Position numbers and translations under genes: made by a program
NCBI GenBank assembly: GCA_964421565.1
Contig: CAYQXJ010000002.1
Location: 193,793-257,792 of the forward strand
Source of the DNA: an uncultured candidatus Brocadiaceae bacterium
Lineage (GTDB): Bacteria; Planctomycetota; Brocadiia; SM23-32
Direction of reading: 5' to 3'
Length of the DNA: 64,000 bases
Part shown: piece by piece, positions 7,727-60,544 of the stretch
Layout: each line of letters starts with the position of its first letter
How positions within the stretch are numbered: position 1 is the first letter of the stretch
Notes under the pieces: model-generated
Told to the model about the DNA's origin: nothing
The model's database searches: none
Seen by the model: only the letters and a program-made list of their open reading frames with translations

Positions 7727-8674
7727 TCAGCCGAGCATGGCGCAGCGGGCGGCGCCGATGATGCCGGCGTCGTCGGGAAGCTCGGACACTCGGACCCTGA
7801 CCTCTCGTTGGGAGGCCGCCATGGTGCGCTTGCGCGCCTCCTGTCTCAGGGGGGTCATCAGCATTTCGCCGGCTGCCGTGACTCCGCCGCTGAAGGCGAT
7901 GATGGCCGGGTTGAGCAGATGCATCAGGTTGCTGACGGCCACCCCAAGATATCGGCCGGTCTGCTCTATGTTCTGCCGGGCGACTGCGTCGCCGTCGAGG
8001 GCGGCCCGATAGATGTCGGCGGCCGTCAACTCGTCCAGTATGCCGGCAAGTGAGGAGTCAGCGCCCCCGCGCACGGTCTCTCGCAGACGGCGCACCATTG
8101 CCGTGGCGCTGGCGTATGCTTCTATGCACCCGTGGTTGCCGCAGCCGCAGAGCGGGCCGTCTGGATTGATGCTGACGTGGCCGAGTTCCCCCGCCACGCC
8201 GCTGACGCCGTGCCAGACCCTTCCGTCGAGCACGATGCCGCCGCCGATGCCTGTCCCCAGGGTAAGCAGCACCAGCGACGTGGCCTGGCGTCCTGCGCCG
8301 AGCCAGCTCTCGGCGAGCGCGGCGGCGTTGGCGTCGTTCTCCAGTGCGACGGGCAGCTGCAGCCGATCGCTGACCATCTGCCTGAGCGGCGCGTTGTTGA
8401 GCAGCGGCAGATTCGGCGAGAACTCGACCACGCCGGCGCGCAGGTTCAGGGTGCCCGGGCTGCCCACACCGACGCCGCTCAGCTCGTGCGGGCGGAGGTC
8501 TGCCCCCTGGGCACATTCGATCACGCCGCGGCAGACTCTGTCGGCGACGGCCTCGGCGCCGCGCTCGGCGTGGGTGGCGAGCCGGTGCCGGCGCACCACC
8601 TGCCCTGTGGTTGTGACGAGGCCGACTTTGATGTAGGTGCCGCCGAGGTCCACACCGGCGGTCAGTGTCGCCAT
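7727..8674 (-). CDS. ROK-family sugar kinase (glucokinase-like)
   Basis: VDLGGTYIKVGL ATP-binding start. LGHVSINPDGPLCGCGNHGCIEAYAS is the ROK zinc motif. No N-terminal HTH is present, so kinase is more likely than repressor. I chose the start at Met51 of the listed ORF. Confidence 0.75.
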   Translation of the reverse strand: MATLTAGVDLGGTYIKVGLVTTTGQVVRRHRLATHAERGAEAVADRVCRGVIECAQGADLRPHELSGVGVGSPGTLNLRAGVVEFSPNLPLLNNAPLRQMVSDRLQLPVALENDANAAALAESWLGAGRQATSLVLLTLGTGIGGGIVLDGRVWHGVSGVAGELGHVSINPDGPLCGCGNHGCIEAYASATAMVRRLRETVRGGADSSLAGILDELTAADIYRAALDGDAVARQNIEQTGRYLGVAVSNLMHLLNPAIIAFSGGVTAAGEMLMTPLRQEARKRTMAASQREVRVRVSELPDDAGIIGAARCAMLG

Positions 8675-34811: not shown

Positions 34812-36185
34812 TCAGTTGTTCAACGATTGCAGCGGGGCCGGTATGCGCCCGCCCCGGCGCACGAGCTTCGATGCGGCGCCCACTCCCCGCACGGGCAGAA
34901 TGACGCTGCGCCCGAAGAGCCCTCCGAACACCGCCATCTGCCCGGCCTGCTTGCCGGGAACCGGTATCAGGCGCACGGCGGTCGTCTTGCGGTTGATGAC
35001 TCCGATGCTCGCCTCGTCCGCTATCAGCGCAGCAATGGTCTCGGCATCCACGTCGCCAGGCACCGCGATCATGTCGAGCCCGACCGAACAGACGCTCGTC
35101 ATCGCCTCCAGCTTCTCCAGTGTCAGCTCGCCGGCGCCGGCCGCATCGGCCAGGGCGCTGTCTTCGCTGACGGGTATGAAGGCGCCGCTGAGCCCCCCGA
35201 CGGAACTGCTGGCGAACATGCCGCCTTTCTTCACCGCGTCGTTGAGCATTGCCACGGCGGCCGTGGAGCCGGGAGCCCCGATCCGCGTGACACCCATCGC
35301 CTGCAGAATCTCCCCGACGCTGTCGCCGACTGTTGGCGTCGGGGCGAGGGAAAGGTCGACGATGCCGAACTCGACCCCGAGGCGAGCGGCCACCTCGCGC
35401 CCGATCAGCTCCCCCACGCGGGTGACGCGGAACGAGGTCTTCTTCACGTGTTCGGCGATCTCGCCGAGGTCGGCATCGGGCCTCTCTTCGCACAGCCTTT
35501 CCACGGCGCGCTTGACGACGCCCGGGCCGCTGACACCGATGTTGACCACGCTGTCGGCTTCGCCGTAGCCGAGGTAGGCGCCGGCCATGAAGGGGTTGTC
35601 CTCCGGGATATTGGCAAACACCACCAGCTTGGCGCAACCGAAACCGTCCCGCTCGGCCGTGCGGCGCGATAGCTCCAGTATGCGAGCGGCAACCAGGTTG
35701 ATGGCGTCGACGTTGATGCCCGCCGCCGTGCTCGCCACGTTGACCGAGGCGCAGACGCGCTCGGTCTCGCTCAACGCGCGGGGGATGGCATTGATGAGCG
35801 CATGCTCCGACGGCGTCATGCCCTTCTGCACCAGCGCGGTGAAGCCGCCCACCAGGTCCACCCCGACCTCGGCGGCCGACTCGTCGAGCGTGTGGGCCAC
35901 GCGGCGGAACGCCTCCTCCTTGCCCCCGGCCGCCAGGGCGCTCACCGGGCTGAGGGCGATCCGCTTGTTGACGATGGGTATGCCATATCTGTGACCCACT
36001 TCCCGGCAGACCTTCACCATGTCGCCCGCCCGGCTGCGGATCTTCATGGATACCTTGCGGCACAGCCGGTGCACGTCCGGATCGGCGCAGTCCAGCAGGT
36101 TGATGCCGAGGGTCACGGTGCGCACGTCCAGGTGTTCCTCGCGGAACATGCGCAACGTAGTCATAATGTCTTCGGTGCGCAGCAT
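34812..36185 (-). CDS. UPF0210 (DUF711) family protein
   Basis: LRMFREEHLDVRTVTLGINLLDC ... LVVFANIPEDNPFMAGA ... GLSGAFIPVSED ... GGRIPAPLQS matches the UPF0210 family end to end. Confidence 0.8.
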   Translation of the reverse strand: MLRTEDIMTTLRMFREEHLDVRTVTLGINLLDCADPDVHRLCRKVSMKIRSRAGDMVKVCREVGHRYGIPIVNKRIALSPVSALAAGGKEEAFRRVAHTLDESAAEVGVDLVGGFTALVQKGMTPSEHALINAIPRALSETERVCASVNVASTAAGINVDAINLVAARILELSRRTAERDGFGCAKLVVFANIPEDNPFMAGAYLGYGEADSVVNIGVSGPGVVKRAVERLCEERPDADLGEIAEHVKKTSFRVTRVGELIGREVAARLGVEFGIVDLSLAPTPTVGDSVGEILQAMGVTRIGAPGSTAAVAMLNDAVKKGGMFASSSVGGLSGAFIPVSEDSALADAAGAGELTLEKLEAMTSVCSVGLDMIAVPGDVDAETIAALIADEASIGVINRKTTAVRLIPVPGKQAGQMAVFGGLFGRSVILPVRGVGAASKLVRRGGRIPAPLQSLNN

Positions 36186-36203
36186 GTCTCTCCCCTCGGC
36201 GGC

Positions 36204-36767
36204 TCAGAGCGCTCCATGGCGGAAGTCGACCTGGTTGGTGGCCAGAAAGATGTTCTCGTGCTGCAGCGCGACCTCCATCTCGTCCGGCGGCCAGAGGCCC
36301 TCCACGTCCATCTGCAACCGCTCCACTTCGAGGCCAGGCGGCACCTGGAGTTGGGCGATCAGCACGAAGCGCTCGCCCTCCCGGTAGGCGTACAGGTCCT
36401 CCAGGTTCACCCCGCGGCTGGCGAGGTAGCTGCTGATGCGGTGTATCACGCCCTTCTGGTCCGCGCCGCTCAGGGTCAGGATGAACCTCTGCGCCTCGCT
36501 CACCACGGGTTCGGGCTGCACCACCTGACGCTGCTGAACGCTCACCGCCAGCTCGCCGCCGCTCTTGGCGCCAACGGCCGCGGCCAGTTGCTCGCCGCTC
36601 ACCGGGACCTCGAAGCGGACCGTCACGATGATGGTGAAGTAGCCCTGCAGCACCGTCTGGCTGATGGCCTCGATGTTGCCACCCAGTTCGACGATCGCCT
36701 CGGTCATGCCGGCGACGATCCCGACCCGGTCCAGGGCCATTACCGATAGCACATAGTCTGTGGGCAT
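36204..36767 (-). CDS. Tandem ACT-domain protein (UPF0237-like), partner of UPF0210
   Basis: Two repeats of the UPF0237 signature: DRVGIVAGMTEAIVELGGNIEAISQTVLQGYFT and DQKGVIHRISSYLASRGVNLEDL. It is immediately upstream of, and co-oriented with, the UPF0210 gene. Confidence 0.7.
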   Translation of the reverse strand: MPTDYVLSVMALDRVGIVAGMTEAIVELGGNIEAISQTVLQGYFTIIVTVRFEVPVSGEQLAAAVGAKSGGELAVSVQQRQVVQPEPVVSEAQRFILTLSGADQKGVIHRISSYLASRGVNLEDLYAYREGERFVLIAQLQVPPGLEVERLQMDVEGLWPPDEMEVALQHENIFLATNQVDFRHGAL

Positions 36768-36788: not shown

Positions 36789-37826
36789 TTAGTGATCGTG
36801 GCGGTCATGCTCCGCGCGGGGGGCGCGCTCCATCAGCGACATGCCCGCCTGCATCGGGTCCTCGTCCTCGAACAGCACGCGGTAAACGGCCCGGCAGATC
36901 GGCATCTCCACGCTGTGCCGTTTCGCCAGGGCACAGGCGGACCGCGTCGTCCGCACGCCTTCGGCCACCTGGGCCATGCTGTCCAGCACCTGTCGCAGGG
37001 TTTCGCCGCGGCCGATGCGCACACCGACCGTGCGGTTGCGCCCGTAGGGGCTCACGCAGGTCGTGATCAGGTCGCCGAGGCCGGTCAGGCCGGCGAACGT
37101 CTCGGGCCGCGCCCCCATGGCGACCCCCAGGCGCGTGATCTCCGCCAGGCCGCGCGTCAGCAGGGCGCTCTTAGCGTTGTCGCCGAACCCCAGCCCGTCG
37201 CACACCCCCGCCGCAATGGCGATAACGTTCTTCAGGGCTGCGCCAAGCTCCACGCCGACAACGTCCGGATTCGTATACACGCGGAAAGTAGGGGACATGA
37301 ACGCAGCCTGCACCATCTCGGCAAGGGCCGGCTCACGGCTTGTCACCACGACCGTCGTGGGCAGCTCGCGCGCCACCTCCTCGGCGTGGCTCGGCCCGTA
37401 GAGGCCGGCCAGCGGCGTCTGCGCGCCGCAGACGTCGGCGATCACCTCGCTGCCGCGCAGCAATGTCTCCTCCTCGATCCCCTTCGAGACGTTCAGCACC
37501 GGCTGTGCCTCACCCAGGTGCGCCCTGACGCGTTCGCACACGCTGCGCAGGTAGATCGTCGGCGTTGCCATTACCACCAGGTCGGCCCCCGGCACGCAGG
37601 CGCCTGCCTGCGAAGTCAGAGTCAGGGACTCGGGCAGTGCCACCTGCGGCAGGTAACGCGGATTGCGCCGCGTGCGCCGCATCTGTTCCACGTAGTCGGG
37701 TTCCACCCCCCAGAGGGTGACCCCGTGGCCGTTGCGCTCCAGCAACAGGGCCAGGGCGGTGCCCCACCCGCCGCAGCCAATGACCGCGATGTGGAGTGCT
37801 GCGCTCTCGATGGGCTCGGTGGTCAT
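36789..37826 (-). CDS. gpsA: NAD(P)H-dependent glycerol-3-phosphate dehydrogenase
   Basis: IAVIGCGGWGTALA Rossmann start, with GLGDLITTC and KGIEEETL motifs. The start is chosen at MTTEPIES. The listed ORF's 154-codon upstream extension runs antisense through the promoter/repeat region and is rejected. Confidence 0.85.
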   Translation of the reverse strand: MTTEPIESAALHIAVIGCGGWGTALALLLERNGHGVTLWGVEPDYVEQMRRTRRNPRYLPQVALPESLTLTSQAGACVPGADLVVMATPTIYLRSVCERVRAHLGEAQPVLNVSKGIEEETLLRGSEVIADVCGAQTPLAGLYGPSHAEEVARELPTTVVVTSREPALAEMVQAAFMSPTFRVYTNPDVVGVELGAALKNVIAIAAGVCDGLGFGDNAKSALLTRGLAEITRLGVAMGARPETFAGLTGLGDLITTCVSPYGRNRTVGVRIGRGETLRQVLDSMAQVAEGVRTTRSACALAKRHSVEMPICRAVYRVLFEDEDPMQAGMSLMERAPRAEHDRHDH

Positions 37827-37927
37827 GCGCTCAGTCCGCCGGCGTGGGCGTGCTTGGGAATCGCGCGCATTATACAGCCGGCCGCCGCGAACGCAACCGC
37901 GCCGGGGGGGCACTGCGGCCGTCTGCT

Positions 37928-38220
37928 GCGCCGCATGGCCCGGCGGTTTTTCTGCTTGACAGTGCGGATGGGCTGTGGTAATATCGCGGCGTTCTGATGG
38001 CACAGTCACGTGAGTGGAGAGGATATACGGAGTAGCGGATGAGAGGAGGTGAGGCACCGAAGGGCGTAGAGGACGAGAGGTGCGACCTGAACAGAGGTCA
38101 TGACGGAGACGTCTATTCTTGTGGGAGGATGTGAAGATGAAAAAGGCGTTTACGCTGATTGAGCTACTGGTCGTAATAGCTATCATTGCTATTCTGGCCG
38201 CTATGCTGATGCCGGCGCTG
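37928..38220 (+). repeat. Copy 1 of a 293-bp perfect direct repeat. It covers the promoter, the ~155-nt leader, the RBS and the first 28 codons of a DUF1559 gene.
   Basis: Identical nucleotide for nucleotide to 39570-39862, at an offset of 1642 bp. The antisense ORFs at 39415..39936 and 36789..38288 have identical translated segments. Confidence 0.9.
37956..37984 (+). promoter_or_regulatory. Consensus sigma70 promoter: TTGACA, 17 nt, TAATAT.
   Basis: cTTGACAgtgcggatgggctgtggTAATATcgcgg. It lies about 155 nt upstream of the ATG at 38137. Confidence 0.6.
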
Positions 38221-39387
38221 GAGAAGGCGCGCCGCCAGGCGGAAGGCGCTGCCTGTCGGTCGAACCTGCACAACCTGGGCCTCGCCATGCAGGCCTACCG
38301 GATCGACAGCGACGGGCTGTATTTGGGGTGGGTCGGCTTCGCTGCGAAAGAAGACGCCCACTATCGACAGAACCAGAGCTACACGGCCGTGGACGGCAGT
38401 TCCGGCTATCAGGATTACCTGGGCCCGAACGTGCCGACCGAGCCGTGGGTCCGTAACGAAGGCGGCCCGATGTGGCAGCTCTACAAGGGCGGCTACATGG
38501 GCGATATCGATCTGCTGCAAGACCCGGCCATCAAAATAGGTGAAGAGCACACCTATGGGTTCGGCAGGCCCCAGTTGCAGCCCTGCGCCCCGGCTGATGA
38601 TCGGAGCGTGGACATCCCGCTCTTTCACAGAGAGCCCCAAATACGTAATGACACCGATTGCGATCAGACCGATCCCATGCACCGGGCCACGGCCGACGTG
38701 ATTCTGGCGTGGGATTACGCCTACGACACCGGTCGCATCGACAAGAACTCGTACGCCGGCCGTGTCATAATGGGCTGCCTGATCGAAAACGCCTGGGGAC
38801 TGCCCGAGAACTACAGCATCTCCAGCGGTGCGCACGCCGGCGGTGCCAACGTGCTGGCGACAGACGGCGCCGTATCGTGGGCGTCGAAGGATTTCGCCGA
38901 CGTGACGTGGGAGGTCACCCAGAACAACGGCGGCAACATCTATGCCGAAGCCATCTGGCGCAACGGCTACGTGCCGAACCCGCGCATGGACGAGGACTCC
39001 TACTACGACCCTTCCGACACCTGGCTGGAGATCGATATCGACGATATCTACATGTGGGAGCAGGCGAGCACCGGCGGTCCGTTCGGCGCCGCCCGCATGC
39101 AGGACCCGAACCTCGATCCCGACCAGCAGGTGACCCCGGGCAACCTGAGCCCGAGTGCGCAGTCGGTCATCGGCAACTGGCAGGATCTGCAGTCCGCTCC
39201 CTTTGCGGACCAGTGGCGCGCGTGGGGCAGCAACTATGGCGACCCGTACTACTATCCACAGCGCGGCGTCTACGCCGGCGAACGGCGTTGGAGTCGTCAC
39301 GACGCCCGTATCGTGACGAACATGCCGCAGTGGATGGCAGGCGTGGGCGGTGTCGGCGAAGACAAGTTCAACATGCTGCCTGACTGA
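38137..39387 (+). CDS. DUF1559 / H-X9-DG prepilin-type N-terminal cleavage/methylation domain protein (pseudopilin-like), paralog A
   Basis: [28 protein letters not shown] type IV pilin-like N-terminus. C-terminal [16 protein letters not shown] is the H-X9-DG motif. RBS GGGAGG. The listed ORF's TTG start gives an 'MWEDVK' prefix, which I rejected. Confidence 0.85.
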
Positions 39388-39419
39388 TCGGCGCGTGTAT
39401 CATCACTCAGACGTTCAGC

Positions 39420-39443
39420 GGGGCCGGCCACCAGGTCGGCCCC
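39420..39443 (+). terminator. Stem-loop after paralog A: ggggccg ... cggcccc.
   Basis: 7-bp GC stem with a 10-nt loop, 33 nt after the stop. The U-tract is weak (gattcat). Confidence 0.35.
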
Positions 39444-39569
39444 GATTCATGTACGGCCGCCGCCATGAGGACAGCCCGGCGCCCGAGTCGCACGTTTCGC
39501 ACACGCCGCAGTGGGCCGGCCGCGCCTTCCCGATCCTTGCGGGCGCGACGGCCGCTGGACGGCGTTGGC

Positions 39570-39862
39570 GCGCCGCATGGCCCGGCGGTTTTTCTGCTTG
39601 ACAGTGCGGATGGGCTGTGGTAATATCGCGGCGTTCTGATGGCACAGTCACGTGAGTGGAGAGGATATACGGAGTAGCGGATGAGAGGAGGTGAGGCACC
39701 GAAGGGCGTAGAGGACGAGAGGTGCGACCTGAACAGAGGTCATGACGGAGACGTCTATTCTTGTGGGAGGATGTGAAGATGAAAAAGGCGTTTACGCTGA
39801 TTGAGCTACTGGTCGTAATAGCTATCATTGCTATTCTGGCCGCTATGCTGATGCCGGCGCTG
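39570..39862 (+). repeat. Copy 2 of the 293-bp perfect direct repeat (promoter, leader, N-terminal coding)
   Basis: Identical to 37928-38220. Confidence 0.9.
39598..39626 (+). promoter_or_regulatory. Consensus sigma70 promoter: TTGACA, 17 nt, TAATAT. Copy 2.
   Basis: Same sequence as the promoter at 37956, lying inside the repeat. Confidence 0.6.
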
Positions 39863-40795
39863 AACCGGGCGCGGCTGTCTGCACGCGTGGCCGCGTGTAG
39901 CCACAATATCCATAACCTGGGGCTGGGCATCTCCATGATGCGCCAGCAACTTAATGAGAACTACCCCAGGGCCTACTACCCCGACGCGTTCACGAACCAG
40001 TACTGCAACGTCTGGGGTCGGCTCTCTGACGGTGGCTATGTCGAGGATCAGGACGTCTTCGCCTGTCCGGTCTCCGGCAGCCAGCTTCAGCGCGATGACA
40101 TCACCCCCGATTGGTACACCGGGCCCGAGGACCTGAACGAGCCCGGCAGCGACGTGGGCGATTACCGCGACGTTCTGAACGCGGGCTACGGCTACGACAA
40201 CGGCCGCATCCCGAAGACAGCGAACCCCGCGCGCGCTATCGCGGCGGACCGGCTGGAAACCATGTGGGACCAGGACGCCCAGCCCTCCGGCGGCATGCCG
40301 CAGGACGTGGCGCACCCCGACGGCAGCGCCAATATCCTGTTCGTCGACGGCGCAGTGCGCGGCGTGCTGCCCAGCCGACCGGACATGGTCTGGAACGTGG
40401 CACCCTATAACAACGTGCCCATAGACCCGGCCAACCCGACCTACCTGATCTCGGAAATCGTCCGCGTGGGCTTCGTGCAGAACCCGCGGCTCGATGTCCA
40501 TCACAAGCAGGACAGGTTCGCCGGCAGCGGACCCGGCACGAACGGCAGCAACCTGGACAACGGCGGCGCGGGCAACGACTACGATGACATCTACGCCATC
40601 GATAGCCCCACGGCCTCGCAACTGTTCAACCTGCACAACAACGAGCGGTTCGAGCGCTACGGCGCCACGGCCGAAAACGCCGTGATGGACCGCGAAGATG
40701 CCGCCATTCAGCCTACTCGTGACTACGACCACATGACGGGCTGGACCGAAGACCAGCGCACGGTTAACTGGACGAGCACGGAGACCGGCTGGTAA
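39779..40795 (+). CDS. DUF1559 / H-X9-DG prepilin-like protein, paralog B
   Basis: The same 28-aa N-terminus as paralog A, then a divergent body. C-terminal motif [18 protein letters not shown]. Confidence 0.85.
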
Positions 40796-41071
40796 GGTCC
40801 CGTTCCGCCAACGCATGCTGGCACCTTGCGGGGACGGCGCCCACCGGGCGTCGGCCCCGCCTGCTTGTACGGACCCTGCGCTTCCGTCAGCCCCGCTGCG
40901 GTGCGCTCAGGCGGGCACGTGGAGCCCGCTACAGGACGTGGACCGGAAGCGACAACAAGCGACGCGGCCAACACAGGGCGCACGCATGGAGTCGGCCTTG
41001 CTGCAGCGCGGGACGCAGCGGCTGAGGGCCTCTGGCGGTCCGGTAGTGGTACCCCCGAAGGGAAGCGGCGA

Positions 41072-41109
41072 GGCCCGTTGACGCGCCTGTTCAGGGCCAC
41101 GCTTTTTTT
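41072..41109 (+). terminator. Intrinsic terminator-like hairpin (ggccc...gggcc) with a T7 tract immediately before the third promoter
   Basis: ggcccgttgacgcgcctgttcagggcc then acgcTTTTTTTc, followed directly by the TTGACA of promoter C. Confidence 0.5.
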
Positions 41110-41110
41110 C

Positions 41111-41139
41111 TTGACAGCACGGCAGGGCTGTGGTAGCAT
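41111..41139 (+). promoter_or_regulatory. Sigma70 promoter: TTGACA, 17 nt, TAGCAT.
   Basis: cTTGACAgcacggcagggctgtggTAGCATgcc. It is a diverged copy of the promoters at 37956 and 39598. Confidence 0.55.
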
Positions 41140-41288
41140 GCCGGGCGTACGCGAGCATGAAGACCGTAGTCATACGCATACGAGCTGAGGGCGAAAGGAG
41201 GTGGTGAGGGACAGCGGGCGAATAGACACGATGCATGCGCTGTGAAGCGTCAGAATGAAGGCGTTCATACTTGTGGGAGGATGTGGAG

Positions 41289-42440
41289 ATGAAGAAGGCG
41301 TTTACGCTGATTGAACTACTGGTCGTAATAGCGATCATAGCTATTCTGGCCGCCATGCTGATGCCCGCGCTCGAGAAGGCGCGAACACGGGCTCGACAGG
41401 CTACCTGTCGCAGCAACGTGCACGAGCTTGGCCTTTCGCTGGCCATGTTCCGAAATGACTTCAACCAGCAGTACCGTTTGGGTTCCTGCACGTTCGTGGA
41501 CGGTAGCTGTCAGGTCGTCGCGTTCCTGATGGCCGATGGCTATGTCGGCGACCGCGAACTGCTGGTCTGCCCGAACCTGGACACCCCGTACAGCCGCGAG
41601 CCGGACCTGAACTGGCATAGCGGGTACATGATATGTGGCTATCCCTACGGTAGTTGGGCCTCGCAGAAGTGGGTGGGCCCGCGGGAGTTCGCCTACTTTT
41701 ACGACGAGGATCGCATCGCGGCCACGGCACCGCCCACGCGCGTGATCATGGCCGACGGGATCGAGATGGCCACCAGCTTCGGCGTTGAGCCGCCGAACCA
41801 CTTCGATGGCGCCAACCTGCTGTTCGTGGACGGCGCCGTGCAGTGGCAGAACAAAGAGTACGCCGACGAGCGCTGGGAGAAGACGGAGGCCGGTGGCGGC
41901 TGGGGCCAGCCATCGCTGGACATGGACCATAAAATCAGTGTTGACTTTATGGTATGGATGGGCGACCAGACCCCTTGGGTCCGTTACGGCGTGATCCCGA
42001 ACCCGCGCCTGAACGAGGACCCGCGCGACGGCGACCTGGACGATATCTACGAGGTGGAAGGGCGTCACGGGCCCGACGGCTACGACCCCGAGTACGACCA
42101 GGGCCCGACCATCGCCGCCGGGCAGAAGGACGTCACCTTTACCTCCTATAACCCGCCCGGACGCTGCGGCGCCGAGGATTTCAGCGGCAAGGTCTCGGAG
42201 ATCGACGCTTCCCTCGGCGGCGGCAGCTACGTTGCCGCATGGGCCAACTGGGGCTTCGATGCCGCCTGGCGCGGCTCCAACGCGGGCAACGACTGGAACA
42301 CGGCGAACGACCACGCTCCGAACAATCCGTCCATCGGCCCCCCGAGCTTCCTGGCGGGATGGGGAGCCGGCGAAGGCGACGGTTGGCAGGGCTGGACGTG
42401 GGGTGTTCCCGAGCCGTGGGAAGACCGCATCTATCCGTGA
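41289..42440 (+). CDS. DUF1559 / H-X9-DG prepilin-like protein, paralog C
   Basis: [32 protein letters not shown], with synonymous differences from A and B. Motif [25 protein letters not shown], part of a conserved ttgtgggaggatgtgRagATG context. Confidence 0.85.
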
Positions 42441-42496
42441 CCCTGAGGCGAGGGACTGGCGCTTCGGCGTGAGTTCACTCGTGTAAGACGAACAGA

Positions 42497-42533
42497 GCGG
42501 GGCAGGGCTTTCGGCCCTGCCCCGCTTCTTTTC
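42497..42533 (+). terminator. Strong intrinsic terminator after paralog C
   Basis: Perfect 12-bp stem gcggggcagggc / gccctgccccgc with a tttcg loop, followed by TTCTTTT. Confidence 0.8.
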
Positions 42534-42606
42534 CGCAGTGCTTCGCCCCTCCCCGCTGTGCGGGCAGCCACCAGCGCGCCGCTGAGCGGCGGCGCCGGAG
42601 GGCTGC

Positions 42607-45603
42607 ATGGCCAGGCACCCCAGGCGGGAGTTTGCAATGACCTCATCGGAACCGTTGCAGGGCCGGGCGACGGCAGACGGGCCGACGCTGCGCGGCGGCA
42701 GGTGGGGCGTGTTGGTGCTGTTCGGCCTGTCGGGGGCGGCGGCGCTCACCTATCAGGTGGTGTGGGTGCGCATGCTGGGGCTGGTGTTCGGGGTTACTAC
42801 CCTCGCCGTCAGCACGGTGCTGACGGCGTTCATGGCCGGGCTGGCGCTGGGCAGCCTGCTGGGGGGCAGGTTCGTCGACCGTCGCTCTGATCCGCTGCGG
42901 GTCTTCGGCGTCCTGCAGTTGGGGATCGCCGTATTTGCACTCTGTTTTCCGTTCATCCTGGATGTGTTGACCGCCGTTTACGTGCAGGTCTACCGTGATT
43001 GGGCGCCGGACCCTTACGTGTTCAGCCTGTTCCGGTTTGGGCTTGCTTTCGCCGTGCTGCTGGTGCCGACCAGCCTGATGGGGGCGACTCTGCCCGCGGT
43101 GAGCCGTTACTTCGTGCGCCGTGCCCGCGACGTCGGTGCCGACATGGGCGCCCTGTACGGAGCGAACAACCTGGGTGCTGTAGTGGGGGCGTTGGCGACG
43201 GGCTTCGTGCTGGTGGAATTCCTGGGGGTGCATGAGTCCGCCTGGCTGGCGGCGGCTGTCAGTGCGGGCGTGGGGCTGGCGGCGTTCGCATTGCACGGCC
43301 GCGGCTCTGCGCGGACTGCCGGGGCTATGCGGCCGGCGGTGGTGCTCGGCCGGCGGGGTGACGTTGCCGACGACGTCGACCCCTTGCCGCGCCACGTTGT
43401 GTGGGTCTGCCTGGTTGTTTTCGGCCTGGAAGGGTTCACATCGCTGGCGTACGAGGTGGTGTGGGTGCGCATCCTCAGCGCGATGGGGTTGGTGAGCACG
43501 CTCTACACTTACAGCCTTGTCGTGGCGACCTTTATCGCGGGTTTGAGTGTTGGCAGCTTCGTAGCGGCGCGACTGCTCAGGCGCAGGCGCGACCTGCTGC
43601 TGTTGCTGGCGGCGCTGGAGGTGGCGATCGGGCTCTCGGTGCTGGCCCTGCTGCCGCTGTTCCGGGAGTTCGGGGACATGGCGTTCTCCGTTAAGGTCGG
43701 CGGGTGGCCGGCGCTTGTGGTTCTGAGCGCTCTGTGGATCGGGGGATTGCTGCTGGTGCCGACCACTCTGATGGGGGCCACCTTCCCGGTGGTCAGCCGC
43801 ATCTATGCCGTGCGCCTTTCCGACTTGGGCACGCGCGTGGGGCGGGTGGGTTTCCTGGACACGGTGGGCTCCATCTTCGGCGCCTTCGCGGGCGGCTTCG
43901 TGCTTATACCGCTGTTGGGCATGCAGGCCAGCGTCATCGCGCTGGCCCTGGTGAACCTGGGGCTCGGGGCGCTGGTGGTGCTGGTGCACCCGGCATGGGG
44001 CAGGGGGCGCAAGGCGGCTGTCGTGGCGCTGACTGTGGCGCTCGGGGCCGGCGCCTGGCTGGCGTTGCCGCATCGGGTTTTCTACTCCCCGCGAGAGGAG
44101 ATCGGCTCGTACCTGCTCTACTACGAGGAAGACGTGGACGCGACGATCACCGTGCGGCGTATCTTCAACGGCGAGAAGGTGCTCGAGGTCAACCGTGTGA
44201 ACGTTGCGGGCACGGGCCCTTCGCTGCTGCCCAGCCAGGTGCTGCAGGGGCACGTGCCGGTGATGATCTACGAGTCCGTCAACGGCAGCTTGCCCGAACG
44301 CGTGCTCCAGGTCGGGCTGGGCAGCGGGCATACCTTTTGGTGTTTGAGCCAGCACGCGTTGCAGGAGATTCACTGCGTGGAGTTGGTGCCCGGCGTGCTG
44401 CGGGCTGCGCGAAAGCACTTCGGCGATCTGAACCACGACGTGTTCGAGGACCTGCGCACGAGGGTGTTCTTCCAGGACGCTCGCACGCACATACTGGCTA
44501 CGGAACGGAAGTACGACCTGATCATGGACGACTCCATCCACCCCTCGCACACGGGCAGCGCGAGCCTGTACAGCCGGGACTTCTTCGCGCACTGCCGCGA
44601 TCGGCTGCGCGACGGGGGCGTGATGTCCGTCTGGCTTCCGCTGTATAAGATGACGGGGCGCGACCTGGCCATGGTCTGCAAGGCATTTCAGGCGGTGTAT
44701 CCGCACGCCAGCCTCTGGTTCTCTGCGCAGCCGTTCAACATGCAAGCGCTCCTGGTCGGGTCCACTCGCCCGATGCGGATGGACTTCGGGCTGTTGCGGT
44801 CGCGGTTTGCGCAGCCCGCCGTCCAGCGCGAACTGGCATCCGTCGGCATCGGCAACGTGTGGGAGTTGCTGGCGTGTATGATGCTGGATGAAGAGGCGAT
44901 GCGCGCCTATACGCTGGGCGCGCCGTGGCATACGGACGCGCACCCGCGGCTGGCGTTCTCCGCCCCGCGGGCGCGGGTGCTGGGCTATGCGACCTTCGCG
45001 CGCAACCTTGGGGGCCTGCTGGCGGAGCGGGGCGACGTGCTGCCCTACGTGAGCGGGCTGGAGTCCGGGCAAGATGGTGACGCGCCAGCAGGAGCGGACT
45101 TGCTGACGCGTTACCGCCGGGTGAACGATATGCTGGTGCGGGCGATGATGGCGCACCGGGTGATGGAGTTTCGCGAGGCGATACGGCTGGCGGAGGAGGC
45201 ATTGTCGCTCGCCCCCCGCAGTGATGCCGCGCGCAGCATGCTGAGCACGGCGCATCTGGACGAGGCGCGCCGGCTGTACTACGAGACTGGGGCGATCGGG
45301 CCCGCCATGCGAGAATGCCTGGCCAGCCTGCGCTACGACGCGCAGAACGTGCAGGCCCTGACCCTGAAGGGGCGGATCCACGCCGCGAACGGTGAGCTGA
45401 GCGAAGCGGTGGAAGCGCTGAAGGCGGCAGTGGCGGCCAAGCCCACCTACGTGGACGGGCGGATGATGCTGGCTGGGTGGCTGGGCCGGATGGGTCGAGG
45501 CGGCGAGGCCCGTGCGCAGGTCGAGGCCGTGTTGCGGGAACTGCCCGAGAACTCACCGGACAGGGGGCCTTTGGAGCGGCTTGCGGGCCAGCTCGGGCGC
45601 TGA
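42607..45603 (+). CDS. Fused polytopic membrane domain, spermidine synthase-like (PABS) aminopropyltransferase and C-terminal TPR protein
   Basis: About 480 aa of N-terminal TM helices, rich in G/A/L/V. The PABS core is VLQVGLGSGHTFW ... ELVPGVLRAARKHF ... RTRVFFQDARTHIL ... YDLIMDDSIHPSHTGSASLYSRDFF, compared with SpeE DVIIVDSSDP...LFT.EFY. The C-terminus carries TPR-like repeats. A Met at 42637 (MTSSEPL) is an alternative start. Confidence 0.7.
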   Translation: MARHPRREFAMTSSEPLQGRATADGPTLRGGRWGVLVLFGLSGAAALTYQVVWVRMLGLVFGVTTLAVSTVLTAFMAGLALGSLLGGRFVDRRSDPLRVFGVLQLGIAVFALCFPFILDVLTAVYVQVYRDWAPDPYVFSLFRFGLAFAVLLVPTSLMGATLPAVSRYFVRRARDVGADMGALYGANNLGAVVGALATGFVLVEFLGVHESAWLAAAVSAGVGLAAFALHGRGSARTAGAMRPAVVLGRRGDVADDVDPLPRHVVWVCLVVFGLEGFTSLAYEVVWVRILSAMGLVSTLYTYSLVVATFIAGLSVGSFVAARLLRRRRDLLLLLAALEVAIGLSVLALLPLFREFGDMAFSVKVGGWPALVVLSALWIGGLLLVPTTLMGATFPVVSRIYAVRLSDLGTRVGRVGFLDTVGSIFGAFAGGFVLIPLLGMQASVIALALVNLGLGALVVLVHPAWGRGRKAAVVALTVALGAGAWLALPHRVFYSPREEIGSYLLYYEEDVDATITVRRIFNGEKVLEVNRVNVAGTGPSLLPSQVLQGHVPVMIYESVNGSLPERVLQVGLGSGHTFWCLSQHALQEIHCVELVPGVLRAARKHFGDLNHDVFEDLRTRVFFQDARTHILATERKYDLIMDDSIHPSHTGSASLYSRDFFAHCRDRLRDGGVMSVWLPLYKMTGRDLAMVCKAFQAVYPHASLWFSAQPFNMQALLVGSTRPMRMDFGLLRSRFAQPAVQRELASVGIGNVWELLACMMLDEEAMRAYTLGAPWHTDAHPRLAFSAPRARVLGYATFARNLGGLLAERGDVLPYVSGLESGQDGDAPAGADLLTRYRRVNDMLVRAMMAHRVMEFREAIRLAEEALSLAPRSDAARSMLSTAHLDEARRLYYETGAIGPAMRECLASLRYDAQNVQALTLKGRIHAANGELSEAVEALKAAVAAKPTYVDGRMMLAGWLGRMGRGGEARAQVEAVLRELPENSPDRGPLERLAGQLGR

Positions 45604-55182: not shown

Positions 55183-57756
55183 TCATTCCACTGTGCGGGC
55201 GGTGGCGCGGTTCAGCACGATGCGGCGGCTCGTGGTGACCAGCCCACCTTGCCGAACGCTGGCCATGGGCTCGCCGGTCAGCACGTAGTTGTTAGTCTCA
55301 CGGGTCCATTCCAGCCGGTCGCCGCTTGCTTCCGTCGCCTGCTGTTGCTGCCAGACGACACGTACGGCCCCCTCCGCGACGAGTCTTTCGATCACCGGTT
55401 CCTCATCCTCCTGGCCAGCCTTCATCGTCAATGTAAGTTTCTCGCAGTTCAGCCTTCGCTGCTCGTCGGACACTGCGACGTTTCCCCAGGCCAGGAACTG
55501 GCGGAGCTGGTTGCCTGGGCCGAACACCGCCTCTGCCGACTCGGCATCAAGGCTCCAGGCCTCTTCGCCCGTTGCGCGGAAGGTCACCTCGCCGTCCGAA
55601 CGCGCGTGCCGCAGCTCCCCCGCGTCGTTGACATGTAGCACGAGCTGGGCGCAGTTCATATCCGCCCCCTCCACCTTCACCTCAACGTCTCCCGAGAAGA
55701 CTCCCCGTTGCTCGCCGGAGTCCAGCTCCATCCTGTCTGCCCACCGGATCACGCCCAGGGCGGGCTGGCCTTCAGGCTGGTTGACTTCGAGGTCGCCCGG
55801 CGTCTCGCAGACCACGCGTTGCTCATGGGTCAGTATGCTGATTTCCTCGCCTCTGAGCTGCCATGTGGTGGCTTCGTCGCCTTCGGCCGCCGGCAACGCC
55901 GCTCCGCTCAGCGCCGCGCTGCCTCCCTTGATGCGGACTACTGCCCCGCCGGCCGCCTCCACAACCTTCGGCGCCATCTCGTTGTCGAACCGGATGATGA
56001 CCTCCTCGCCCCGAATGGACTGCTCCCCTTGGGCGGCGGCCACCGAGCCGAGGAAACGGGCTTCTGCGGTTTTACCGGGGCTGTAGTGCATGCTGCGTTC
56101 CCAGCGGACGGTCGTGGTGGTTGCGTCCACGTCGGCGCTCTGCATGCTCAAGGTCCCTGCTGCGGGGCAGCTTAGTGAGCCGTCGGCGTTGTTGAACAAC
56201 ACGCGCGGGGAGACTATGGTGCGGTTGTCCTCAGTGACTGTGACGCTGCCGCCCTCGGAGCCGAGCAGTTGCACGCTCTGCTGAACAGCGTCCCAGACGA
56301 AGCGGTGGCAGTCGGCTGTCCGTTCGTTCGCGCCGTGCGAGTCGTGCAAGAGCACGTTGCCCTCGGCGACGATCTGCTCGATGTCGCCGCCACCCTCGGC
56401 GAAACTCAACTCCAAAGAGTCGCACTCAAGACTGCTGGTCCGCTGTTCGACCACGACATCGCCCGCGAAGCTGGCAAATCGCGACTCGAGGTCGTACGTC
56501 ATGGACTCCGACCACGCTATGCGCACCGGTTCATGGGTGCTCAGCGTCAATGAGCCTTGAGGCAACATCTGTGGCGTCTGTTCGCTCGAGTCTTCCGGGG
56601 GGGACTGTGGCGTCGACCAGAACAACGTGCCGGCGCCTTCGGCATCGAATCGTGTGTTGAGGCGGTAGAATGTGAGGCTCTGCCCCGTGATGCGGAAGTC
56701 CGGGGTCTGCAGGTCGCAGGGGTCCCCGGTCAGAGTGCCCGTCTGCAGCACGTTGTGCCACTCCAGATGCTCGCCCTGCACGATCTGCTCCCTGTACGTC
56801 AGCACGACATCGCGGTCAGCGACGATCCGCGTCACCTCCACGCTGGTTCGACCATTGCTTTCACTGAGCAGCAGCGTCAACTGCTCACAGGACAGCGTGC
56901 GCTCACCGTCGGCGGCTTCGGCGTTGTCGTGGAACACCACCTTGCCAGCGGTATGCTCGTAGGTCATGCGCCCGTCGCATGTTATGACGACGTCGCGGAC
57001 TTGCGAGGCTCCGGCGCTCGCCTCCGGACCGGCGGCCAGGAACTCCGGCGACACGTCATTGAGCCGCGTCTCCACGTTCGAGTGAATGGTCATTGTGCGG
57101 AGGCCGATGTCCACTGAAAGCCCCTGTCCGGTGACGAGCATGTCCGGGGCCGACTGCTCGCGGCCGGCTCCGCGGCGGGTGCGGATCTGCACGGGAGCGT
57201 CAGATGCCAGCGACCCGTCGCCCACATTGTAGACGACTCTGTCCGTGCGCACCTCAAAGCCTTCGCCGGCGGCTCGCACATTCTCCGACAGCCAGACGAC
57301 GCCCCGGTCACGGTCCACGCGCGCTTGGTCGGCCGTCAGCCTCACGTCGCCGAACTGCACGTCGAGCCCTTCGCTGCCCCCCTCGGAGAAGATGGTCGCC
57401 ACGGGCTGAAGGAGGTTGTAGATGTTGCTCTCGGTGTTCACCGACGCGCTTTCCCACCGGATCACCGCCTCTTTGCTCTTCGTCTGCTGGTTGAAGAGCG
57501 GTAGCTCCGACTCGGCGAGCACCAGATGGCTCTCCAGCCCCTCGCCCTGTTCTTCCGGTTCGGCGCGCGTGTCGTCGGCCGTCTCTTGATCGCTTGGCGG
57601 CCGGTTCGCCACACCCGTGGTCGGCACAGGGCGAACCGGCGTGCCGGGTTTTACGATGGAGTATGTGAGCAACATGACTCCTGCCAGCACGCAAACCACA
57701 AGCGCGCCACGCAGAGATATGTGAAAGGCTCTATCGGTCATGCCGGTTACTTTCAC
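55183..57756 (-). CDS. Large hypothetical membrane-anchored periplasmic protein with repeated OstA/LptA-like beta-jellyroll-type segments (inferred)
   Basis: N-terminal TM (ALVVCVLAGVMLLTYSIV). About 800 aa of beta-rich repeats with recurring V..DG.L..D..V motifs. It is the last gene of the tilS / AsmA-like operon. No firm family call. Confidence 0.45.
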   Translation of the reverse strand: MKVTGMTDRAFHISLRGALVVCVLAGVMLLTYSIVKPGTPVRPVPTTGVANRPPSDQETADDTRAEPEEQGEGLESHLVLAESELPLFNQQTKSKEAVIRWESASVNTESNIYNLLQPVATIFSEGGSEGLDVQFGDVRLTADQARVDRDRGVVWLSENVRAAGEGFEVRTDRVVYNVGDGSLASDAPVQIRTRRGAGREQSAPDMLVTGQGLSVDIGLRTMTIHSNVETRLNDVSPEFLAAGPEASAGASQVRDVVITCDGRMTYEHTAGKVVFHDNAEAADGERTLSCEQLTLLLSESNGRTSVEVTRIVADRDVVLTYREQIVQGEHLEWHNVLQTGTLTGDPCDLQTPDFRITGQSLTFYRLNTRFDAEGAGTLFWSTPQSPPEDSSEQTPQMLPQGSLTLSTHEPVRIAWSESMTYDLESRFASFAGDVVVEQRTSSLECDSLELSFAEGGGDIEQIVAEGNVLLHDSHGANERTADCHRFVWDAVQQSVQLLGSEGGSVTVTEDNRTIVSPRVLFNNADGSLSCPAAGTLSMQSADVDATTTTVRWERSMHYSPGKTAEARFLGSVAAAQGEQSIRGEEVIIRFDNEMAPKVVEAAGGAVVRIKGGSAALSGAALPAAEGDEATTWQLRGEEISILTHEQRVVCETPGDLEVNQPEGQPALGVIRWADRMELDSGEQRGVFSGDVEVKVEGADMNCAQLVLHVNDAGELRHARSDGEVTFRATGEEAWSLDAESAEAVFGPGNQLRQFLAWGNVAVSDEQRRLNCEKLTLTMKAGQEDEEPVIERLVAEGAVRVVWQQQQATEASGDRLEWTRETNNYVLTGEPMASVRQGGLVTTSRRIVLNRATARTVE

Positions 57757-57769
57757 TGAGTGCGGATGT

Positions 57770-60544
57770 TCAGGGGGCTACCTGCGTCGGCCCTTCCGGC
57801 CGGCCGTCGCCCAGAATGGGACTGAAGAGCACGGTTCTCAGGCTCCGGATGGGCCAGGTGATCGTGCTGAGCACCTGGGAGCTGAACTGCGGATCATTCC
57901 ACGTGCCGGTGACGTCCACTCGAACCAACTGGCTCTCGATGCCGCGCAGGACCCAGTCTACCAGGGAACTGAGGATGGGTATACCTCGGCCCTCTTCCGG
58001 AGCGCCGAAAGCAACCAGTGTCAGCTTGAGACTTGTGTCGAACCCTATCGTACCGTAGCCACTGATGTTCAGACCGCCTCCCGTGAGCTCGAACTCCTTG
58101 ACCTGGAGCTCCTGACGGTCGATGTCGAAGACAAGGCGGCCTTTCTGGCCCGAGCGCTTGCCGCCTGGGATCTGCAGTCGGAGCACGCCCAGCAGCCTGC
58201 CGAAGAAGGGGGCGTCGAGCAGTTGGCCCTGCTGCAGTTCCACCTGTCCGCGCGCCGTGAAGGAGCGCGCCTGGCCCATGATGCCGCCCACATCCACTGT
58301 GCCGGATATCAGACCGGCCGGCAGCTTCCCGGTGCTCTGCTGAGCTTCAGAGAGTTGCCCGGCCAGGCGTTCCAGGTCCACGTCATGGAACTCGACCGAC
58401 GCCGCGTAGCTGGGGAAATCTGTAGCCGGGCGGAAGTGCGCGACGGCCTGCGCCAGGACCCGCCCGCCGCAGACTATGCCGGAAAGCTCGTTGCTGAACA
58501 TGCGCTCGCCGGTAGCCAGCACAGTCCCCGAGACGGCGCTGATCGGCAGGGGCACCGCCGCCGGCTCCAGGGCGATGTCGAGTAAATCTACGTTCAGAAA
58601 GCAACGAAACGGCTGCGGGTGAGAGCTGTCGTAAAGCACCTGGCCGCCGAACGATGCAACCCCCGCAGGGCGGAACTGCTCCCACAGGCGGTCGCCGATG
58701 CCGGGCACCGATCGGAGCAAGCGCTCGGTGAGCACCACCTCGTGCCCGTCCAGGTGTACGCTCGCATTGCCGTCGGCCAGATCGACTCGGCCGTTCACGC
58801 GCAGAGGGCTCTCCGTGGGCGGCTCCTCTCGCCATTCGTCCCTGACGCGAACGATTCCTCCGACGTCGTCGAACAAAAGCTCGGTGCCCTCCAGGTGCAG
58901 GTTGCCGCTCAGGCCATGGATAACGACGGGCATGAAGTCGAGTTGGCTGCTGCCGTCGAGAACTTGCACCTGGACGGAGGACGGCACAAGGCTGCCGCCT
59001 CCTGCGCTCTCCAGCACGACGTCCGCGTTGATCAGCGCACGGGGACGCACCGATTGCCACACCCGCTCGCCGTATTCCGGTATGGCGAGGATCAGCGATT
59101 CGCTGGTGCGCAGATTCCGCACGGACACCGCCAGTTCGCCGGTAGATTGCGTCAGACTCAGCCGACCGTTGGCGGAGACGTGAGCTGCCGAGGATGCCCC
59201 ATTCTTCTCGCCCGGCTGCACGATCACGCCGTGCACGTTCTGCAGCTCAACCGCCCGCGGATCCACCGCGAGTGTGCCGGCGACCTGCTGCAGCGGCAGC
59301 GGCAATTCCTTCGGGCGCAACGTAGCCGACCGTATGTCGGCCAGCGCTTCGTATGTGAGCTGCTTGGAGCCATCCCTGCGACGGACCATCACGTCCAACC
59401 GGCACATTCCGCTCGGGTTGAGGCGCTCCCACAGGGCCGGTCCGACCTCGGGCACGCCCGCAACGGTCTGCTCGCAGATAGGAACGTCGTCCGCCGAGAT
59501 CTTCAGCGCAACGGGACCGCTGTTCCACAAGTACGTTCCGTCCACGGCTACGTGCGCATGTACAGCCTCGCCCGACTCGTCGCCGAACGCATCGGCCCGC
59601 ACGATGCCTTTGACGCCGCGGAGCGTGATGCCGGAATCGTCGATGATGATGTTGCCCCCGGCGGACTCGACGGGCAGGGGATAGTGCTTGACGGTGGCTG
59701 AGCAGTCGAGCGCGTTGATGACGACGGCCCAGCTCAGCTTACCCTCTTCGCTGCTCGCCACGTGTGCGTCCACCGAAGCGAGTCCGCTCAGCCTGAAGTC
59801 GCGCCATAGCTTGTTGCCACTCGGCACGTAGGGCCACAGGGCCTCGCCCACCTGCATGGCGGAGTTCGCTATGCGCAAATCCATCTGCGGCGGACCGCCC
59901 GGGCGCAGCCATCCGCTCAGCCGCGTGCCACGCAACATCCCGCCCGTGCATTCCCCCTCCAGGCGCCACGTGCCTGCCTCGGGCGTTGCCCGCAGGTGCA
60001 GATGCTCGAAGCGTCTTGCCTGCTGGTTGCCGAAGACCTCGGGCATCACGACCGACAGCGCGGCGTCCTGCAGGGTCACGCCACGGCGCAGCAGGTCGAG
60101 GGCAGGGGCCGCGCCGGCGCCGTCACCTTCGCCGTTCTTCAGACCCAGCTTGTCGAAGTTCCAGGCCCCGCTGTCGTCGTCGCGCACCAGCCGGATCGCG
60201 GGCCGCACCAGCGTTACCTGCTCGGGCACCACCTCTCCGCTGAGCAGGCGGCCGATGTCGATGTCCACGCGCATCCGGTCGACGGTCAACAGCGGTTCCT
60301 GCGTGCCGGGCGGGGATATGCTGATTCCCCAGACGTGCAGCGCGCCAGCGAAGTCCAGCTCTGCGCGTTCGATGGCCAGTTCCGCGTCCACTGACCGGGC
60401 GAACTCGGCCAGGAGTGCCTGGCGCACGTTCTCGGGTGCCACCACGATGCACACGGTCCTCAGCAGCACTCCTGCGACAAGCAGCAGCAGCCCGAGCACG
60501 ATCAGTTTGGTGGCTGTCCAGATGCGCATGGTAGGGGCCTCCAC
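57770..60544 (-). CDS. AsmA/TamB-like giant envelope-biogenesis protein
   Basis: N-terminal TM (LIVLGLLLLVAGVLL), then LTVDRMRVDIDIGRLLSGEV..RPAIRLVRDDDSGAWNF, typical of the AsmA N-terminal region. It is 924 aa and beta-rich, ending in a repetitive C-terminal region. It starts 49 nt after the tilS stop. Confidence 0.5.
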   Translation of the reverse strand: MEAPTMRIWTATKLIVLGLLLLVAGVLLRTVCIVVAPENVRQALLAEFARSVDAELAIERAELDFAGALHVWGISISPPGTQEPLLTVDRMRVDIDIGRLLSGEVVPEQVTLVRPAIRLVRDDDSGAWNFDKLGLKNGEGDGAGAAPALDLLRRGVTLQDAALSVVMPEVFGNQQARRFEHLHLRATPEAGTWRLEGECTGGMLRGTRLSGWLRPGGPPQMDLRIANSAMQVGEALWPYVPSGNKLWRDFRLSGLASVDAHVASSEEGKLSWAVVINALDCSATVKHYPLPVESAGGNIIIDDSGITLRGVKGIVRADAFGDESGEAVHAHVAVDGTYLWNSGPVALKISADDVPICEQTVAGVPEVGPALWERLNPSGMCRLDVMVRRRDGSKQLTYEALADIRSATLRPKELPLPLQQVAGTLAVDPRAVELQNVHGVIVQPGEKNGASSAAHVSANGRLSLTQSTGELAVSVRNLRTSESLILAIPEYGERVWQSVRPRALINADVVLESAGGGSLVPSSVQVQVLDGSSQLDFMPVVIHGLSGNLHLEGTELLFDDVGGIVRVRDEWREEPPTESPLRVNGRVDLADGNASVHLDGHEVVLTERLLRSVPGIGDRLWEQFRPAGVASFGGQVLYDSSHPQPFRCFLNVDLLDIALEPAAVPLPISAVSGTVLATGERMFSNELSGIVCGGRVLAQAVAHFRPATDFPSYAASVEFHDVDLERLAGQLSEAQQSTGKLPAGLISGTVDVGGIMGQARSFTARGQVELQQGQLLDAPFFGRLLGVLRLQIPGGKRSGQKGRLVFDIDRQELQVKEFELTGGGLNISGYGTIGFDTSLKLTLVAFGAPEEGRGIPILSSLVDWVLRGIESQLVRVDVTGTWNDPQFSSQVLSTITWPIRSLRTVLFSPILGDGRPEGPTQVAP

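Follow-up and report, generated by a model that had tools for sequence, protein, structure and literature searches.

Ectopic gene conversion between paralogs is known from tufA and tufB in Salmonella and from the 5′ and 3′ segments of the bab/hop outer-membrane paralogs of Helicobacter pylori. Segmental concerted evolution by the same route is also known for bacterial rRNA operons (PMC8022953). In planctomycetes, pilin-like paralogs that join an N_methyl segment to an SBP_bac_10 (DUF1559) domain number at least 41 genes per genome, with 91 in Tuwongella immobilis (PMC8567305), and they form the largest paralog group, of 68 genes, in Planctopirus limnophila (PMC10632474). The function of this family is obscure (PMC8567305, PMC10632474). 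Here we describe three pilin-like genes, A, B, and C, that lie in tandem in a 64,000-nucleotide (nt) stretch of DNA from an uncultured candidatus Brocadiaceae bacterium (assembly GCA_964421565.1, contig CAYQXJ010000002.1, positions 193,793 to 257,792; hereafter the window). A direct repeat of 293 nt, without a single mismatch, spans the promoter, the leader and the first 28 codons of A and of B. The account that we favor, and hold as a whole with considerable confidence, combines the anatomy of the three genes, two short blocks kept by selection, and recurrent conversion that uses these blocks as anchors. The process is already known, and A, B, and C are a further case of it in a known, functionally obscure protein family.

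Three pilin-like genes with one front end

All three genes lie on the forward strand: A (38137-39387) encodes a protein of 416 amino acids (aa), B (39779-40795) one of 338 aa, and C (41289-42440) one of 383 aa. An initial annotation of this DNA had placed and sized all three open reading frames (ORFs) correctly to the base. It had also described an invariant N-terminus followed by divergent bodies, and both statements are borne out: residues 1-28 of the three proteins show no differences, and the bodies of any paralog pair are 29-37% identical at the amino acid level. Each N-terminus has the features by which a prepilin is recognized, namely a short basic leader (MKKA, then the cleavage point), G or A at position -1, F at +1, E at +5, and a hydrophobic helix of ~20 residues. 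In agreement with these features, PF07963 scored 29.2-29.5 bits (cutoff 21.2) and TIGR02532 29.7-30 bits (cutoff 16.3) on the three proteins. The DUF1559 (H-X9-DG) label that the initial annotation had given to the bodies stands in part. Protein A passes PF07596 (DUF1559/SBP_bac_10) with 33.3 bits against a gathering cutoff of 23.3, and A and C carry the H-X9-DG motif; B and C fall below the cutoff, with sub-threshold matches of 17.3 and 18.3 bits, and the motif of B is H-X10-DG. The TIGR04294 hidden Markov model (HMM; cutoff 19) scored C at 15.9 and matched neither A nor B. Among the database homologs of the three proteins, matches to PF07596 were only intermittent. The closest of these relatives bear either no name or the name 'prepilin-type N-terminal cleavage/methylation domain-containing protein', and they come from Planctomycetota metagenome-assembled genomes (MAGs) labeled Brocadiia or Brocadiaceae. 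A Foldseek search against the PDB returned no solved relative for the globular body.

This profile matches the expanded N_methyl + SBP_bac_10 family of planctomycetes, with which A, B, and C share the class III (prepilin) signal, the hydrophobic alpha-1 helix, the H-X9-DG region and an obscure function. They also share the lack of adjacent pilus machinery: no genes for PilD, PilB, PilC, or a secretin were found among the 20 neighboring genes scanned. However, A, B, and C belong to a small subfamily, with two to three genes per related genome examined, and they have extended C-terminal regions and marginal DUF1559 HMM scores. Moreover, they occupy a conserved tandem locus beside gpsA, whereas the published family is described as evenly dispersed round the genome. 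A subfamily that is small, syntenic, and probably highly expressed offers an entry point for functional work.

The 5′ module of gene A (37928-38220, + strand) consists of a T-run, the promoter, the leader, the ribosome-binding site (RBS), and codons 1-28. Copy B of the module (39570-39862, +) is 100% identical to it over all 293 nt, with 0 mismatches, as the initial annotation had stated, and copy C (41103-41372, +) is a diverged version with the same architecture. Even if 80-92% identity were to be expected of the module, an identical run of 293 nt would have a chance of 10^-28 to 10^-11. Identity between A and B falls abruptly at codon 28 and, on the other side, 28 nt upstream of the -35 element. 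Leader C is ~66-68% identical to leaders A and B. Over the first 84 coding nt, C and A are 92% identical; the 7 differences are all at third codon positions and all synonymous, so the claim of purely synonymous drift in the N-terminal codons of copy C is correct.

An exact repeat of this length exceeds typical short-read k-mers, and the source is evidently a MAG. Both facts would suit an assembly artefact in which a binner or assembler pasted the front end of one copy onto the other gene, a possibility that the initial annotation had raised against its own reading. Independent assemblies of sequencing runs in Logan (k = 31, k-1 = 30 nt) speak against it. In at least 7 runs, the contigs break exactly 30 nt inside the repeat ends. 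Contigs of three of these runs (L011, L014, and L013; SRR7048218, SRR7048227, and SRR7048228), which are 99.9-100% identical to the window, have 39833 as their first position, so that each includes the last 30 nt of the repeat. A further contig of 1409 nt, L015, is present in 4 samples and equals window positions 38191-39599 at 100%. We retrieved it by predicting the truncated product expected from a k = 31 contig spanning these positions, and it holds the body of A with 30 nt of repeat at each end; these two 30-nt ends map onto both repeat copies. Protein C was likewise found in Logan assemblies of several sequencing runs. The breaks in the read graph are exactly those that a true exact 293-nt repeat predicts, so the repeat is not an artefact of the MAG, and both of its boundaries are fixed independently of that assembly. 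The same phenomenon appears in a second, independently assembled genome (L001, below). We consider an artefact extremely unlikely.

Probable conversion of the front end between old paralogs

In two related genomes, L001 (GCA_964510315.1) and L017 (GCA_964655775.1), the layout is the same as in the window: gpsA on the minus strand, then three pilin-like genes. The bodies of A, B, and C pair with their counterparts in L001 (A′, B′, and C′) at 55%, 58%, and 62% aa identity, compared to 29-37% for any paralog pair. Because the bodies pair one to one, the triplication predates the split of the window genome and L001. By contrast, the 5′ modules group by genome. Leader identity is 100% between A and B in the window and 100% between B′ and C′ in L001, compared to 62-74% between the genomes. 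Similarly, over the first 84 coding nt, identity is 90-100% inside a genome but 83-87% from one genome to the other, with an identical peptide throughout. The B′/C′ tract of L001 (11544-11814) extends for 271 nt with one mismatch, from the T-run to codon 28, and codon 28 is the 3′ end of the tract in both genomes. Within the tract, paralogs are closer to each other than orthologs are; outside it, orthologs are closer. In addition, homogenization has recurred independently, with sharp boundaries, as A = B in the window and B′ = C′ in L001. Different pairs, sharp and coincident ends, and bodies that are still orthologous form the textbook signature of recurrent segmental gene conversion. Within the overall account, we judge it very probable that ectopic conversion has affected the promoter, the leader, and the N-terminal segment and nothing beyond them, which agrees with the recent gene conversion that the initial annotation had proposed for A and B. 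The event in the window is at least as old as the ~0.1% strain divergence among the Logan samples, all of which share the junctions.

Like the known cases of concerted evolution in rRNA operons, tufA/tufB, and bab/hop, the paralogs within a genome are closer than the orthologs between genomes, and a sharp-ended tract, bounded by loss of homology, recurs independently across lineages. Unlike these cases, the A/B tract is an expression front end (promoter, 5′ untranslated region (UTR), and 28 codons) rather than a whole gene or coding segment. In addition, a non-coding leader appears to hitch-hike between two selected anchors in genes that are otherwise 29-37% identical.

Tandem genes with a perfect repeat are also what a plain recent duplication would leave, with B recently derived from A and the 293-nt identity a remnant of that copying; the initial annotation had allowed for this reading too. 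A locus from another MAG (L006, JASFTU010000154.1, 1-2240) shows what a plain duplication in this family looks like: its two adjacent genes are 76-89% identical over their full length. By comparison, the bodies of A and B are ~34% identical, and each has an ortholog at the same position in L001. The shared gene order in L017, the abrupt loss of identity at both ends of the repeat, and the homogenization of the other pair in L001 all point the same way. Body orthology thus contradicts a recent tandem duplication, and we find this origin of B scarcely credible. The L006 pair is itself a genuine recent tandem duplication; one of its copies begins with MKKG and has a different RBS context.

A third reading takes its model from Neisseria, where one expressed pilin locus (pilE) is accompanied by promoterless, partial silent copies (pilS) and the variable part moves. 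The locus in the window is similar in that pilin-type genes have constant N-terminal and variable C-terminal parts and gene conversion is involved. The layout of a constant front end and a variable body accordingly suits programmed pilin variation, as the initial annotation had suggested, in which C-terminal bodies would be shuffled from silent cassettes. Alternatively, on the same reading, the expressed body would be switched by deletions or amplifications that arise between the two 293-nt direct repeats; these repeats, perfect and 1642 nt apart, may suit unequal crossing-over that deletes or duplicates the body of A. However, A, B, and C are three complete, full-length genes, each with its own promoter and RBS, and the segment transferred between them is the constant part, not the variable one. 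When the three bodies were used as tblastn queries for silent cassettes, the 64 kb yielded no further fragments (E<0.1). A scan of the whole genome collection gave module matches in related genomes, and in the three representative ones whose loci were inspected, all of these matches fall in such pilin-gene clusters, with 2-3 copies per genome. The bodies are stable one-to-one orthologs in conserved order between the window and L001, the three-gene layout is the same in L017, and Logan contigs of several runs carry the same junctions as the window. Together, programmed variation and its variant appear quite improbable to us, although the direct repeats could mediate deletion or amplification of the A body, a matter on which short reads are uninformative.

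As a description, 'constant promoter/leader/N-terminus plus variable body' does hold, for all 17 genes (8 loci) in which a full promoter could be seen. Selection that acts on a few expression motifs and on the alpha-1 helix of the pilin accounts for the constant front, with no need of programmed recombination, and the conversion here is ordinary bacterial gene conversion rather than pilin switching. The locus therefore carries a caution: perfect non-coding identity beside diverged coding bodies need not mean a programmed cassette system.

A conserved expression module and its leader

Each gene has a TTGACA promoter with a 17-nt spacer, as the initial annotation had claimed. Promoter A (37956-37984, +) combines TTGACA and the spacer with the extended -10 element TGgTAATAT; a T5 run (37947-37951) lies before it and a GC-rich discriminator, CGCGGCG, after it. 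Promoter B (39598-39626, +) is identical, and promoter C (41111-41139, +) has the same spacing, TGgTAGCAT as its -10 element, and a T7 run before it. The pattern TTGACA-N14-TGNTANNNT has three matches in the 64 kb, all at these promoters, with 0.00 expected. Long leaders of ~145 nt follow, and the RBS GGGAGGA lies 7 nt before every ATG (A, 38123-38129, inside the block TGTGGGAGGATGTGRAGATGAARAAGGC; B, 39765-39771; C, 41275-41281; all +), again in line with the initial annotation. Its claim that each gene has its own terminator fared less well. A GC-rich hairpin does follow each gene on the + strand, at 39419-39444 after A (11-bp stem, poor U tail; z -3.17), at 40828-40860 after B (no clear U tail; z -1.67), and at 42495-42527 after C (~15-bp stem; z -5.24). 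Only the last, which is followed by UUCUUUUCC and forms an intrinsic terminator at 42495-42535, has a proper U tail.

The hairpin and T-run just 5′ of each -35 element could be taken for a terminator, but the hairpin is weak (z +1.48) and the T-run is kept before 17/17 promoters, including that of gene A, whose upstream neighbor is divergent. This run is more likely an UP-element-like feature. An invariant 'WEDVK' frame extends upstream of the start, and automated callers may choose the longer ORF. The in-frame codon 18 nt 5′ of the ATG (window 38119, L001 9983) is TTG in most copies and ATG in gene A′ of L001, whereas three genes from L017 and L018 have TAG there. We rejected the upstream TTG as the true start because of these TAG codons and because GGGAGGA is ideally spaced for the ATG. 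The variation at this codon indicates that the 'WEDVK' frame is merely the translated RBS.

We gathered 21 genes from 12 loci with the RBS/N-terminal nucleotide block TGTGGGAGGATGTGRAGATGAARAAGGC and with protein look-ups; a metagenome scan contributed 4 short contigs. Because the block was the search pattern for most of these loci, its conservation among them is partly by construction. However, L017 and L018 (GCA_003551305.1), which were recovered via protein homology, retain a close variant of it. In 17/17 genes with enough upstream sequence, a T5-T8 run abuts the -35 element, and TTGACA, the 17-nt spacer, and a TG-extended -10 element (TGnTAnnAT) are all present, usually with a GC-rich discriminator. 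The RBS GGGAGGATG was found in all collected genes with leaders.

The leaders carry a further conserved motif. All 20 leaders with enough sequence contain GAAAGGAGGTGA, either exactly or with one mismatch, 73-144 nt before the ATG, and in 15 of the 17 full-promoter genes it lies 48-56 nt past the -10 element. In the window, this Shine-Dalgarno (SD)-like motif reads GAGAGGAGGTGAG in leader A (38041-38053, +), where it stands 56 nt after the -10 element and 84 nt before the ATG with no start codon following. The same motif occurs in leader B (39683-39695, +), and leader C has GAAAGGAGGTGGT (41193-41205, +). The 3′ anti-SD tail of 16S rRNA is generally conserved, and GAAAGGAGGUGA is a 12-nt complement of this widely conserved tail (...UCACCUCCUUUC), taken here as the general consensus rather than from the host's own 16S. 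An upstream ORF (uORF) behind the motif was considered and rejected: an ATG, GTG, or TTG at 4-12 nt after it was found in 0/20 leaders.

The leaders of L017, L018, and L004 are not homogenized, and outside the motifs they are hardly more alike than shuffled sequences (baseline 54 +/- 2.6%). This background argues that the motif blocks are held by selection and that the perfect A/B identity is a separate, recent event. Composition also sets the front end apart. The leaders are 60-68% purine, compared to 51% for the window, and their GC content is below that of the genome; the GC content at third codon positions is 0.61-0.68 in codons 1-28, compared to 0.82-0.86 in the remainder of each gene.

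These observations suggest how the front ends may have been homogenized. Three anciently diverged, independently transcribed type IV pilin-like genes (N_methyl + DUF1559/H-X9-DG), probably very strongly expressed, each begin with the same series of elements: a T-run, a consensus -35 element, a 17-nt spacer, a TG-extended -10 element, a GC-rich discriminator, the leader, the RBS, and 28 codons. The leader is purine-rich and unstructured, ~145 nt long, and includes the 12-nt complement of the 3′ end of 16S rRNA, which is non-initiating. The GGGAGGA RBS, a strong one, then precedes 28 invariant codons of lowered GC content for the prepilin signal and alpha-1 helix. Selection keeps the promoter block and the RBS/N-terminal block near-identical among paralogs, and these two blocks could serve as homology anchors for RecA-type ectopic recombination; RecA-dependent conversion is the mechanism that we infer. 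A tract that starts in one anchor and resolves in the other would carry the fast-evolving leader along and overwrite the front end of the neighboring gene. It would end where homology collapses, a few nt 5′ of the T-run and at codon 28. The tract would be confined to the front end because the bodies are only 29-37% identical and the upstream DNA is unrelated. The latest conversion homogenized A and B in the window genome and B′ and C′ in L001. If so, two short selected anchors would be enough to let conversion repeatedly homogenize a regulatory front end between paralogs this divergent.

Several points count against this account or limit its reach. The promoters, the transcription starts, and the terminators are all predicted from matches to consensus, and with two of the three downstream hairpins lacking a U tail, some read-through between the genes is possible. 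The complementarity of the leader motif relies on the general conservation of the anti-SD tail. The scan of the source genome covers the 64-kb window, and further copies of the module may lie elsewhere. Donor and recipient cannot be told apart, as leader identities to other genomes are too near the shuffle baseline. Finally, STAB-SD, the closest known counterpart of the leader motif, has been established for Firmicutes, which possess RNase J.

We read the module as a high-expression front end. The STAB-SD of Bacillus thuringiensis cry3A is described as a non-initiating, SD-like 5′ mRNA stabilizer in the 5′ UTR (Agaisse & Lereclus 1996 and Mathy et al. 2007, summarized in PMC4113751). The leaders of the pilin-like genes resemble it in having a strong SD-like sequence (GAAAGGAGG...) in the 5′ UTR, ~85-125 nt upstream of the real start, that is non-initiating, and in belonging to genes expected to be very highly expressed. 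In all 20 leaders, a complement of the anti-SD tail lies in the 5′ UTR, far from the start, and is non-initiating. They differ in coming from Planctomycetota rather than Firmicutes and in the position of the motif, which is at the 5′ end in cry3A and ~45-50 nt away from the predicted 5′ end in the pilin-like genes. By analogy, the upstream motif may possibly dock the 30S subunit as an mRNA stabilizer or standby site, a role that we propose tentatively. A broader proposal is more doubtful still: the front end might be a portable super-expression module in which GAAAGGAGGTGA, ~45-50 nt from the mRNA 5′ end, acts as a STAB-SD-like 30S dock outside Firmicutes; A, B, and C might be among the most abundant envelope proteins; and conversion might be favored because it keeps their expression matched. 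If the upstream motif does act like a STAB-SD, the mechanism would reach beyond Gram-positive bacteria.

The leader could instead be a regulatory RNA, with the A/B identity serving co-regulation. It might be a platform for a CsrA-type GGA-binding repressor, formed by the upstream AAGGAGG and the RBS, or a target of a small RNA (sRNA), or it might contain a uORF. Its length is great for a simple mRNA, and its two conserved GGA motifs lie 73-144 nt apart, one of them overlapping the RBS. By contrast, no conserved hairpins present these motifs: RNAalifold on 11 leaders gave 0 consensus pairs and no covariation, and the single-sequence fold of leader A was no better than shuffles (z = -0.77). Rfam gave no match at gathering thresholds across the whole window and none at E<=1 in 37800-42700. 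The full 12-nt anti-SD complement exceeds what a CsrA site needs, and no uORF start follows it. A regulatory leader of any of these kinds seems unlikely to us, and a CsrA-type or sRNA target is a weaker alternative than 30S docking. This reading concerns only the role of the leader and is compatible with gene conversion.

Besides the case of gene conversion, this analysis yields a conserved expression module that includes an anti-SD complement. As a unit of T-run, TTGACA-17-TGnTAnnAT, leader with anti-SD complement, and GGGAGGA, it is a candidate strong promoter and 5′ UTR tool for Planctomycetota.

Genes around the locus and other repeats

The neighbors of the pilin-like genes include gpsA, an ACT/DUF711 pair, a UxaC-like gene, an MFS-spermidine-synthase-TPR fusion, GFO/IDH/MocA oxidoreductases, GH130, and a rhamnosidase. 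The ACT-domain (187 aa) and DUF711 (457 aa) pair, at 34812-36767 on the minus strand beside gpsA, is conserved and syntenic in L001 and L017.

The fusion gene (42607-45603, +) encodes a protein of ~982-998 aa that joins an MFS-like membrane region, a spermidine/spermine-synthase domain, and C-terminal TPRs. Its membrane part is duplicated internally, with direct repeats at 43055-43106/43748-43799 and 43186-43211/43879-43904, each with a spacing of 693 nt. The gene is syntenic in L001 and in the Logan contig L013 and is absent from L017. Two of the Logan contigs described above (L011 and L014; SRR7048218 and SRR7048227) both stop within it at window position 43084, where L013 reads through; at this position the read graph probably branches between strain variants.

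A different kind of repeat was seen in L018 at 7269-7979, where the 1.3-kb spacer between its two pilin-like genes is filled with nested direct repeats. The longest are 110 nt at 97% identity with a 601-nt spacing, accompanied by families of 70, 51, and 48 nt; they may be similar to repetitive extragenic palindromes or miniature inverted-repeat transposable elements (REP/MITE-like), or represent a degenerate array. Elsewhere in the window, at 55183-60544 on the minus strand, a large envelope-biogenesis pair encodes proteins of 838 aa (LptC-like plus LptA/LptD-N domains) and 924 aa (AsmA/DUF748-like).

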